This document shows, one piece after another, positions 49,301-52,300 of a DNA stretch of 64,000 bases. The position numbers were made by a program. The stretch is taken from NCBI RefSeq assembly GCF_030013205.1, contig NZ_CP122648.1. One strand, written 5' to 3'. Source of the stretch: Escherichia coli (GTDB lineage Bacteria; Pseudomonadota; Gammaproteobacteria; Enterobacterales; Enterobacteriaceae). Every line of letters begins with the position of its first letter. Position 1 is the first letter of the stretch.

Positions 49301-52300
49301 ATTATGACAAGATAAATAAAGACGACATCGTGATTAACGATATCGCAGTTTCCCTTTCAAATATCTGTCGCTTTGCAGGACATCTTTCACACTTCTACAG
49401 TGTCGCCCAGCATGCGGTGCTTTGCAGCCAGCTGGTGCCGCAGGAATTTGCTTTTGAAGCGTTAATGCATGATGCAACAGAAGCATATTGCCAGGACATC
49501 CCAGCGCCACTGAAACGACTTCTTCCTGACTATAAACGGATGGAAGAAAAAATAGACGCCGTAATCCGTGAGAAATACGGGTTACCCCCGGTTATGAGCA
49601 CGCCTGTGAAATATCCCGATCTCATCATGCTCGCAACCGAACGCCGTGATCTCGGGCTTGATGATGGCTCTTTCTGGCCTGTACTGGAAGGTATCCCGGC
49701 AACAGAGATGTTCAAAGTTATTCCACAGTCGCCAGGCCATGCCTACGGGATGTTTATGGAACGCTTTAACGAGTTATCGGAGTTACGCAAATGCGCATGA
49801 GTCTTTCAACTGCACAACCATTGGAGGGGTAGCAATGAACAACTTAATGACAACTAAACAGGTCGCCGACTTCTGTGGTGTTTCAATATCAACAGTGCTT
49901 CGCTGGAACAGCATAAACCATAGAACAGGTAAGAAATATAGACCAGACTTTCCTGATCCTGATATAAAATCCTGTCCCAATAAATGGGCATCACACAAGA
50001 TTTATAGGTTTGCGGGTATTATCGAATAACATTTATTTGTTTCGATGTTAGCTGACACATCTATGGCACAGAGCAAAACCGAATATGATTGTCCACTCTG
50101 TGCTAGTAGAAAACATAGATATCAACTATCCGTACCAATCTGTGAGTATAGAATAAATTAATCTGCTCGCAACTAATAGCCTCTAACAGCCAATACAGTG
50201 CCACCGATGATACAAAAAACAATACTCCAAAAAGCGTCTGGTATTGGATTGTCATTACTAGCTTCCGAGGTGAGATATGCATTAAGCCAGGTGCGCTGGA
50301 AAAGTTATGTTTCCCTAATGGAATTGCCCATGACTCAACATATTTTTTCTCTGTTGCTAGCGAATAGACCTAAAATGATAAGCACCATTAACATCAACAG
50401 CGCCCCCTTGAGCTCTTCTTTTCGGTGAAAAGCCCATCATCAACGGCGCATTGCCTAACCCGAATTCTAGCCACCTTAGCCAGTATTTACCCCCTAGATA
50501 CCAAATGCTTACCCCTCTATTTGCTCTGATAATACTTTATTGCATAATCCCTCACTACATTAGACACTGCGTCAATCCTGCCTTCTATAGCTTGTTTTAA
50601 CGCTTTCGGCACATTCCTCTGAACCAGCCCAAGATATGGCTGTTAAATTTTTACTTACATTCAAAAAAACTTTAACTTTTGCAATCAGATCATATGATGT
50701 TGTTAATGGTAATATTCTGAATCTAAAATGACTTAAGAGTTCGTAGGTTAGAGGGACATGTATGACTTCTGAAAGCAACAGAATTGGGAAGATGGGTGTA
50801 AACTACATAGAAGGTGTATTGACAAGATGGGGATGGGGATATCAATCAATTTCGCAAGAAAATGATGATGGGTTTGATGGCTTAATATATATAAGATCTA
50901 AACGATTTGAGGCGAAAGATAAAGAAAACCGGAGTAAACAATCTTGGGAGTTCACTGGTGGGTTGATTCATGTACAAGTAAAAAGTGGAGATACATACAT
51001 TAGTAGTCGTAATAAAGATGAAATAAGGATCAAAATAAAAAACCTCAATGAAAAGAAGAAAATATGGTCTAGATCGTCTATTCTATGCATACTTGTATTT
51101 GTTTTTTGGGATCATAATGAAGTTGAGTATTCCTACTGGGCTGATCTTAAATCTGAATTAACTTATTGTGATAACAGTAGTACGCTAATAAAAATCCCCT
51201 TAAAAAATAGATTTATGAGATCCCAAGAGTGTAAGGGGCCTTTAAGACGACTTGCAAGGGTATCGGCCAACTATGCAGATAAGCCGCTGATAGATTTATC
51301 AAAATTTGACTCATTAAGTGGTAAGCTACCTACAAGTCTAAACAGTAACCTAAATTGTTCTTTGAAAAAGAAAGGTATTGAATTCTATCAGAAATGGCGA
51401 TTAATTGGGGCTACAAACCCTTATTTTGGTCCTGTTCTAATAAACAGAACTGGTTGGAGTCATATAACTCGACGAAATCGCCCAATAGCAAGAATTGAAG
51501 CAAGCTTTAATTTGTTACCTTTAGCAGCAAGAATTATAAATGATGTATCTACATGGCGAATGTTAACACCCGTACGACGGTATGATAATAGAAAGGATGG
51601 TTATGTTTGCTTTATAGATTTCGTTGGGTTAACAGCCAAAGTGAATTTAAAGAATCGCAACTCATCAGAAGTTATGGTTGTGTTAAAAAGGGAGAGGAGG
51701 TATAAACAGGGTGAAGACTGTTCCTCTGCGAAAACAAGATTATGGTTTTACACTGTTTATGAACCTGGAAGAGGAAAATAAATTGAGGCGGTACAATCGC
51801 GCTCAGGCTGTCCCAGACGTGATGCATAACACCACCGGTTCCAGAATTTAAGGATCTGGACCTTCAATTATGCGTGTACCGCCTTATGCAACAATACTAT
51901 AAAATTATTAAACGTCAAGATGTTCAATAAGATTTGGGCTTTCATGCCACAACACGAAAGTTCATTTTATAACGTCTAAAGCTTTCACAATGTCCGCTTT
52001 TCGCAGCTCAAAGCGGACAGTCATATTTGATTGTATTCTGGCTACTGGAGCCTCAGTTAGAGTCTGAGATAGTACAAGTAATGATCGATTCAACTCTCTC
52101 CCACCATGCCTGGTAGGCTTTACGCTGTTCTTCTAGATAATCGCTCTTATCATAAACTTGCCATACCCCTGGCAGTTTATGGCCGAGCATTATTTCTGCA
52201 ATATGAGGCGCAGTAAGATCAGAAAAGTTTGTTCGTGCTGTTCGCCTCAAATCATGAAGAGACCAATGAGGGAATTGATACCCCAAACGCCGCCATGCGT

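Follow-up and report, generated by a model that had tools for sequence, protein, structure and literature searches.

The stretch analyzed here (hereafter the window) comprises 64,000 nt of Escherichia coli DNA (contig NZ_CP122648.1 of assembly GCF_030013205.1) and holds, at the end of a lambdoid prophage whose early region (yfdP-yfdQ-yfdR) is CPS-53-like, an open reading frame (ORF) of 339 aa that is predicted to encode a nuclease of the DUF4365 family joined to a second, conserved domain. Directly past its stop codon, on the opposite strand, lies a candidate gene for a structured RNA. The principal features of this pair are as follows:

50762..51781, plus strand: nuclease ORF, 339 aa, supported by the ORF list, the Pfam DUF4365 match, homologues and a two-domain AlphaFold2 model
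50762..51256, plus strand: N-terminal nuclease domain, residues 1 to ~165, with invariant D35, D36, G37, D39, Q72 and K74
51359..51772, plus strand: C-terminal domain, residues ~200-337, with its own invariant residues and a fold without known match
~51776..51886, minus strand: structured RNA gene, ~105-110 nt, three-way junction, supported by flank conservation, a covariance model and covariation
51918->51891, minus strand: sigma-70-type promoter of the RNA, TTGACG, 16-nt spacer, TATTGT, located with a promoter scanner

The ORF starts with ATG, has a ribosome-binding site (RBS), GAGGG, 8 nt upstream and shows a GC content of 0.33-0.37. An earlier note on this DNA had described it as an ORF with a clean RBS between an excisionase-like gene and the integrase, preceded by ~730 bp of AT-rich DNA with short ORFs only. 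Both descriptions stand: the neighboring genes match phrog_1553 and phrog_1, and positions 50030-50761 contain only short ORFs at a GC content of 0.35-0.42, compared with ~0.5 in the flanks. This AT-rich stretch was considered as the site of a conserved element and rejected, since it is unconserved among homologous loci.

A predicted nuclease joined to a conserved C-terminal domain

The protein has 98 homologues, nearly all of them full-length at ~340 aa, from Cedecea, Yersinia, Serratia, Acinetobacter, Edwardsiella, Enterobacter, Klebsiella, Pseudomonas, Caballeronia and many metagenomes. Its N-terminus had been likened previously to DUF4365-type PD-(D/E)xK domains, a resemblance borne out by profile search, in which Pfam PF14280 (DUF4365) matches residues 10-153 with E=6.7e-17. 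Across 94 aligned sequences D35, D36, G37, D39, G66, Q72 and K74 are invariant, and the candidate catalytic residues of the D...(E/Q)xK core suggested earlier, here D39, Q72 and K74, are thereby conserved in the form of a D...QxK motif (D39...Q72-x-K74). An AlphaFold2 model of the 339-aa protein contains two domains with a mean predicted local distance difference test (pLDDT) score of 88.6, and the modeled nuclease domain shows a PD-(D/E)xK fold with Hjc-like topology. On this sequence-based evidence the N-terminal half is a predicted PD-(D/E)xK nuclease of the DUF4365/DREN type with its motif intact.

DUF4365 is the DREN effector of SPARDA, an indiscriminate DNase and RNase whose activity is abolished by the D41A/Q60A/K62A substitutions (bioRxiv 10.1101/2023.06.08.544223). 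D39, Q72 and K74 would correspond to SPARDA D41, Q60 and K62, judging from the form of the motif and strand position and not from a residue alignment. In PADLOC the only matches are partial ones, to Argonaute-associated Aga_REase proteins in their nuclease part and to the candidate PDC-M02A. PHROGs and NCBIfam return no match, and neither does a PDB sequence search with the family profile.

The C-terminal portion had been characterized as ~200 lysine- and arginine-rich residues without a motif. The family comparison replaces this picture with that of a well-folded, strongly conserved domain, which has its own invariant residues (R229, G231, W232, H234, T236, R237, R240, Y330, Y333, P335 and R337 in the 94 sequences) and recurs in combination with TIR, SIR2 and CHAT domains. 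A comparison of the domain with solved structures gives no structural match. The C-terminal domain defines the protein family and is presumed to be an RNA-binding, sensor or regulatory module. An exhaustive profile search gathers 300 family representatives at the 50% clustering level, the majority of which combine DUF4365 with this domain; DUF4365 is present in 33 of the 35 distant members tested by Pfam. Other effectors found on the C-terminal domain are TIR (P0180), TIR together with DUF4365 (P0186 and P0199) and, in proteins without DUF4365, SIR2 (P0202 and P0221). The set formed by DUF4365, TIR and SIR2 is the same as that found on APAZ in short-Argonaute systems. By analogy, a constant C-terminal domain combined with interchangeable suicide effectors is the architecture expected of a sensor-effector immune protein.

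A further member of the family, P0114 (L075:2239-3816), is a protein of 525 aa in which a CHAT protease domain and a weak DUF4365 match accompany the C-terminal domain. A GC-rich hairpin lies directly 3' of its stop codon.

A structured RNA gene directly past the stop codon

When the flanks of divergent homologue loci are compared, the ~110 nt directly past the stop codon are conserved and the upstream DNA is not. This 3' element is kept among E. coli, Acinetobacter, Pseudomonas and Caballeronia loci whose proteins are ~40% identical, and it also lies downstream of homologues in Yersinia, Enterobacter and a metagenome-assembled genome (MAG) of the Acidobacteriota. No RNA gene is annotated here in RefSeq, and a search of Rfam (4227 families) yields no match at E<=10 overlapping 51776-51918. 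The earlier note had called the protein stand-alone, within coordinates that end at the stop codon. A survey of homologues for conserved partners overturns that description: it reveals no conserved protein partner but an RNA partner, encoded by a strictly linked, convergent gene. Unannotated neighbors of 279-334 aa in the Yersinia, Acinetobacter and Caballeronia loci were considered as a protein partner and rejected as mutually unrelated.

Read along the ORF strand, the element consists of one arm of helix P1, an invariant strand of 17-18 nt (CTCAGACTGAYCCAGAC), hairpin P2, an invariant CGG, hairpin P3 and a conserved pyrimidine strand (CTCTCTATTG), after which P1 follows again. P1 pairs the 5' and 3' ends, P2 and P3 are hairpins, and the strands of the junction are invariant. 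From E. coli to the Acidobacteriota the 17-nt and 11-nt junction strands remain unchanged, and the helices vary yet keep their pairing; the variable parts of the RNA are base-paired and its single-stranded parts are invariant.

A covariance model, R1, was built only from the Pseudomonas-type clade, and it matches the window at 51783-51887 on the minus strand with 55.3 bits (E=3e-11). In the covariance-model alignment, which is fitted to the model, 95.8% of cells are standard pairs, compared with 26-41% when the partners are slid; two-sided changes occur in 19 of the 26 pairs, including every pair of P2 and P3; and the covariation score is 0.586, compared with <=0.129 for slid partners and 0.218 for shuffles. 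The covariation of the hairpins is nonetheless plain in the raw sequences. The window copy of the RNA folds with z=-4.1.

Such an element could in principle be a mere transcription terminator, served by a chance promoter and with no function of its own. A U-rich tract does follow P1, and the element does lie between convergent genes. Terminators, however, do not preserve ~30 invariant unpaired nucleotides together with two covarying hairpins in their interior from phylum to phylum, and the promoter position is conserved in all 11 of the 11 loci of one clade. We regard this explanation as very improbable.

The distribution of variable and invariant parts also bears on what a functional RNA might do. 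It could serve as a positive cofactor or sensor scaffold, in which case the C-terminal domain and the RNA would form a surveillance ribonucleoprotein that recognizes phage nucleic acid or protein and turns the effector on, analogous to short Argonaute with its guide and APAZ. The match between the DUF4365, TIR and SIR2 repertoire and that on APAZ in short prokaryotic Argonaute systems speaks for such a role, and recognition specific to each lineage could reside in the variable hairpins P2 and P3. Nevertheless, the RNA offers no obvious single-stranded variable segment that could act as a guide, its variable parts being paired and its single-stranded parts invariant, and we assign this role a low probability.

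Strand, promoter and ends of the RNA

The wobble pairs differ between the strands. In P2 the non-Watson-Crick combinations comprise 23 A.C on the ORF strand, equivalent to G.U on the minus strand, versus 1 G.T. The well-paired core of P1 has 8 wobbles that exist on the minus strand only versus 1 on the plus strand, a count that becomes 9 versus 11 when the poorly paired outer positions are included, and P3 has 0 minus-strand versus 3 plus-strand wobbles, at its loop-proximal pair. The mean folding energy is -37.6 kcal/mol for the minus strand versus -35.3 kcal/mol for the plus strand; the single-sequence folding z-score does not discriminate between them.

The boxes of the sigma-70-type promoter occur at the same offset in 11 of the 11 enterobacterial-type loci. 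They lie 3-4 nt before the start of the model in 10 of these and 8 nt before it in the other (L008), and a -10-like hexamer is found at the same offset in most Pseudomonas-type loci. This position places the predicted start of transcription at the base of P1. At the opposite end a U-rich tract, UCAAUUUAUUUUCC, follows the 3' arm of P1 and overlaps the final codons of the ORF and its stop codon, such that the convergent RNA, with its transcript ends as predicted, overlaps the last ~7 nt of the ORF. Together, the wobble asymmetry and the positioned promoter indicate that the RNA is probably read from the strand opposite the ORF; on the same two observations an RNA element in the 3' untranslated region (UTR) on the strand of the gene was rejected. 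The element is best read as a discrete RNA of ~105-110 nt (~51886->51776) that is transcribed, by prediction, toward the ORF.

This convergent geometry raises the possibility of an RNA that acts as a cis-antisense transcript only: it would leave the protein unbound and would tune or silence expression either through transcriptional interference or through duplex formation with the nuclease mRNA at its 3' end or 3' UTR. The RNA is transcribed toward the ORF, its U-rich 3' tail reaches into the stop codon and the codons before it, the ORF has no good plus-strand terminator after it, and an mRNA reading through would be fully complementary to the RNA. The arrangement also recalls known convergent antisense RNAs, namely lambda OOP/cII and B. 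subtilis txpA/RatA and bsrG/SR4, in which a promoter located shortly downstream of a prophage gene drives a small RNA toward the 3' end of that gene, and the two transcripts overlap at their ends. OOP, RatA and SR4, however, form extended duplexes and act on a regulator or on small peptide toxins, and simple pairing of this kind needs neither a conserved fold nor invariant unpaired nucleotides, both of which are seen here. Moreover, the RNA has no complementarity to the 5' region of the mRNA, and the toxin would be a soluble, two-domain enzyme of 339 aa in place of a small membrane peptide or the small hydrophobic peptide of type I toxin-antitoxin (TA) systems. Antisense control as the sole function of the RNA is improbable in our estimation. 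A trans-antisense action on the 5' end of the mRNA was also considered and rejected, with z ~0 and with synonymous sites that vary in the conserved MTSESNR codons.

Linkage of the gene and the RNA and their movement as a unit

The association was also examined from the RNA side, using a DNA pattern derived from the conserved core only, in 100,044 species genomes and in metagenome contigs. The pattern matches that possess the P1 stem (6 of 6 in the species genomes and 10 of 10 in the metagenomes) are all preceded on the same strand by a gene for a homologue of the protein, which ends ~25 nt upstream. The remaining matches, 27 in the species genomes and 7 in the metagenomes, have neither stem nor gene; around a dozen of these belong to an unrelated repeat of Deltaproteobacteria, the others being chance matches dispersed over genomes that are mostly GC-rich. 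R1 detects exactly one copy of the RNA in each of the 27 loci with a homologue of at least 40% identity, the window included, and none in the other loci searched, among them two with more distant homologues. In the loci examined that carry a homologue of at least 40% identity, the nuclease gene and the RNA are always together and move together.

The deltaproteobacterial repeat is itself a near-identical, repeated or mobile sequence of ~110 nt with the form TAGCCTTATGCATATGAAGTTTATTCTCAGACTGATCCCAGACAACGG...GGAAGGCAGTGCATTA. It occurs in loci of Deltaproteobacteria/Desulfobacteraceae MAGs (L025, L030-L034, L039-L041 and L045).

Among the enterobacterial-type loci, clear similarity begins at the start codon (50752-50762) and ends at 51883-51935, and so takes in the RNA and, as a rule, its promoter. 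Weaker similarity covers ~110 nt upstream of the ORF, a segment that holds the RBS, a 5' UTR hairpin and a promoter-like region. Since the similarity extends through the RNA and into this upstream region, a unit of ~1.2-1.3 kb with promoters at both ends appears to move whole; in the window it spans ~50640-51935. The remaining features of the unit and the genes on either side of it are the following:

49835-50029, plus strand: excisionase ORF, 64 aa, PHROG phrog_1553, E=2.6e-34
50625..50651, plus strand: terminator-like hairpin with T-tract at the left edge of the unit, a consensus match only
50700..50729, plus strand: candidate ORF promoter, TTGTTA, 18-nt spacer, TAAAAT, a consensus match only
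52053-53276, minus strand: integrase ORF, 407 aa, phrog_1, E=9e-74

The candidate ORF promoter falls within the ~110 nt of upstream DNA that is weakly conserved among loci, and the terminator-like hairpin may shield the unit against transcription arriving from upstream.

The unit is found in diverse settings. It occupies the int-xis slot in the window, the Q-antiterminator/lysis slot of a Yersinia prophage and the gap between tail genes V and S of P2-like Enterobacter prophages. In Acinetobacter it adjoins an XamI/Eco57I restriction-modification (R-M) pair, in Pseudomonas an OLD-family ATPase-TOPRIM gene, and in Caballeronia it lies among metabolic genes. Where the earlier note had proposed an anti-phage effector, these settings (prophage moron slots, the P2-like tail-gene gap and the proximity to R-M and OLD genes) agree with the proposal, and the activity itself remains a prediction from sequence. 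Taken with the absence of a conserved protein partner and with the TIR, SIR2 and CHAT relatives, the settings fit, by analogy, a defense-like character.

The occurrence of ORF and element as a unit in many unrelated contexts could have another cause, namely that the element is not an RNA but a single-stranded DNA recombination site, attC-like or IS200/IS605-like, which mobilizes the gene as a cassette. Sites of the attC type are likewise strand-specific, folded and located directly 3' of ORFs, and a DUF4365 defense gene exists as an integron cassette. Yet the ends of the element, as read from the sequence, lack the RYYYAAC/GTTRRRY core sites of attC, and its fold is a three-way junction and not an imperfect hairpin. 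A conserved promoter is set to start transcription at the first helix; the unit is not promoterless but has its own upstream promoter region, conserved together with 5' UTR DNA, in which it differs from integron cassettes; and neither an integron integrase nor TnpA accompanies it in the loci examined. A recombination site is scarcely credible as an explanation.

Of 5426 complete E. coli genomes, 21 carry the gene; the same 21 carry the RNA, whose copies share 100% identity. The integrase is present in 699 E. coli genomes, with other cargos. Searches of phage and plasmid collections find neither the gene nor the RNA. The module might also be a selfish addiction or stabilization element, or serve a prophage function other than general defense, such as superinfection exclusion against relatives or DNA processing: it resides in mobile elements and is rare in E. 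coli, and a toxin-like gene tightly linked to an antidote-like RNA resembles addiction modules. On the other hand, the module also exists outside prophages, beside R-M and OLD genes and among metabolic genes, and its TIR, SIR2 and CHAT relatives point to immune-type architectures. Although these roles are not mutually exclusive, we consider a purely selfish or prophage-directed role to have little probability.

E. coli K_EC180 (NZ_CP062203.1) and ETEC1748 (NZ_CP122719.1) match over 1870 and not 1871 nt in the region equivalent to 50030-51900, and in K_EC180 no coding sequence is annotated over the 3' end of the gene. This variant may be a frameshifted allele with an intact RNA.

Several further observations concern the prophage. 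Its insertion site adjoins yjjG-rimI-holD. The 64-aa excisionase ORF (49835-50029, plus strand) is unannotated in the identical RefSeq record NZ_CP122685.1. Positions 50173-50485 on the minus strand hold a stop-riddled remnant of a 112-aa hypothetical gene of small E. coli plasmids, at ~65-67% DNA identity, which suggests a decayed earlier cargo of the int-xis slot. A second accessory cluster of the same prophage, at ~40250-42710 (L001:2224-4680) near the Q-antiterminator/lysis region, contains a tRNA-Gly, an AraC-family regulator, a DUF6731 protein and a hypothetical gene, and a copy of IS200C lies close by.

Elements beside distant family members

In four distant loci, with proteins that share 20-35% identity with the window protein, the stop codon is directly followed by a conserved element of another kind (L022:3951-4080, L074:2139-2260, L077:2036-2140 and L078:3508-3580). 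In these few sequences it comprises a hairpin with covarying stems (ATCGG/CCGAT, ATCAG/CTGAT and ATAGT/ACTAT) followed by ACGC-N-ATTAC(T)CT, and in L074 a stem of 11 bp encloses all of it. It may represent a second class of partner RNA.

Suggestive elements of ~100 nt with outer stems of 10-14 bp also lie directly past the stop codon of a gene combining SIR2 with the C-terminal domain (L085:4222-4330) and of another distant member (L076:2576-2690). Their folding z-scores, each from a single sequence, are -3.6 and -4.2, respectively.

Comparison with known systems

The module shares with SPARDA its nuclease family, as judged from Pfam DUF4365, the PADLOC Aga_REase match and a D...QxK motif like the validated D41/Q60/K62. 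It also shares the attachment of the nuclease, through a linker, to a non-catalytic domain, the existence of sister architectures with TIR and SIR2, and the involvement of an RNA. In contrast to SPARDA, it lacks APAZ, and the match to Aga_REase-PNTD1-PNTD2 covers profile positions 6-113 of 429, the nuclease part only. Its RNA is encoded, folded, ~105 nt long and equipped with its own promoter, whereas SPARDA uses short guides sampled from transcripts. No short Argonaute gene is present in the window or in the homologue loci examined.

Type III TA systems (ToxIN, AbiQ/antiQ and CptIN) likewise combine a toxic enzyme with a linked structured noncoding RNA in a mobile element, without a protein antitoxin, and the logic proposed for the module, in which the RNA would restrain the toxin and infection would release it, is the same. 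Their RNAs, however, are tandem repeats encoded upstream on the same strand, whereas the RNA of the module is single-copy, downstream and on the opposite strand. Their toxins are endoribonucleases of the ToxN/AbiQ fold that process the RNA; the module instead pairs a predicted PD-(D/E)xK nuclease with a domain without known fold. Retrons also possess swappable effectors, and an effector held in check by, and sensing through, an adjacent structured nucleic acid is what we propose here. The module differs from them in having no reverse transcriptase, no multicopy single-stranded DNA (msDNA), no msr/msd features and no Rfam match.

Divona is a DUF4365 single-gene, phage-protective cassette of the Vibrio cholerae chromosomal integron, and its E. 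coli homologues lie within 20 kb of integrases (bioRxiv 10.1101/2024.07.02.601686). The organization of Divona, an N-terminal DUF4365 followed by a second domain, and the proximity of its E. coli homologues to integrases both match this locus. The C-terminal part of Divona is described as crr6-like (PF08847), and no RNA partner is described for it. The Pfam scan of the window protein gives DUF4365 and not the crr6-like PF08847, although the authors of the Divona work may have used more sensitive profile-profile methods, and no V. cholerae family member is found among the matches listed. By description, Divona is the closest candidate relative.

A proposed model for an RNA-controlled effector

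The interpretation that we tentatively favor is that protein and RNA form one module, in which an abortive-infection-type effector with a sensor domain is controlled by its cognate RNA. The DREN-type nuclease would be the effector half, and the conserved C-terminal domain to which it is joined would bind the RNA. As the cognate regulator, the RNA would act as an antitoxin-like safety, as a sensing partner or as both, and would keep an indiscriminate nuclease silent. Infection would then perturb the RNA or the complex, and the released nuclease would degrade nucleic acid. Carried as prophage cargo, the module would function as an abortive-infection or anti-phage system. An inhibitory or sensor role of the RNA is favored because a toxic nuclease requires an antidote in tight linkage, a role for which no protein is present, because the RNA has a strong dedicated promoter, and because invariant unpaired nucleotides imply recognition by a protein and not simple antisense pairing.

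Several points weigh against this interpretation. The interaction of RNA and protein and the direction of regulation, inhibitory or activating, are purely inferred, as is a link of the RNA to the C-terminal domain rather than to the nuclease. R1 detects no element beside distant members, including the CHAT fusion, in a run that left out the TIR and SIR2 fusion loci. Searches of PADLOC, PHROGs and NCBIfam reveal no family covering the whole protein, and the alternative cargos of the int-xis slot, compared with PADLOC, give no matches and are not known defense genes. Finally, an H-type pseudoknot that would join the P3 loop to the purine strand of the junction is attractive by eye but lacks statistical support (a mean of 4.25 bp for cognate versus 3.95 bp for non-cognate combinations).

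Implications

The module would belong to the type of RNA-controlled toxic effectors, and the chance that it represents a new category altogether is substantial. The literature searched describes no RNA partner for such proteins. A broader proposition, which is possible but rather doubtful, is that the module is the founding example of an unrecognized class of immune modules, independent of Argonaute, reverse transcriptase and CRISPR, in which an encoded structured RNA and a novel sensor domain are combined with interchangeable effectors (DREN, TIR, SIR2 and CHAT). Cognate RNA classes would then differ by subfamily, and single-gene systems such as Divona would need an unannotated RNA.

Defense-discovery pipelines and genome annotation consider proteins only, and an RNA partner that is more strictly linked to the gene of this widespread DUF4365 protein than any protein neighbor is invisible in RefSeq, Rfam and PADLOC. 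If this RNA controls the nuclease, both the structured RNA family and the RNA-binding or sensor domain would be new, and a second RNA-associated sensor, unrelated to that of the short Argonautes, would have recruited their effector set. Cloned "single-gene" nuclease systems may, in that case, owe their behavior to a co-cloned RNA.

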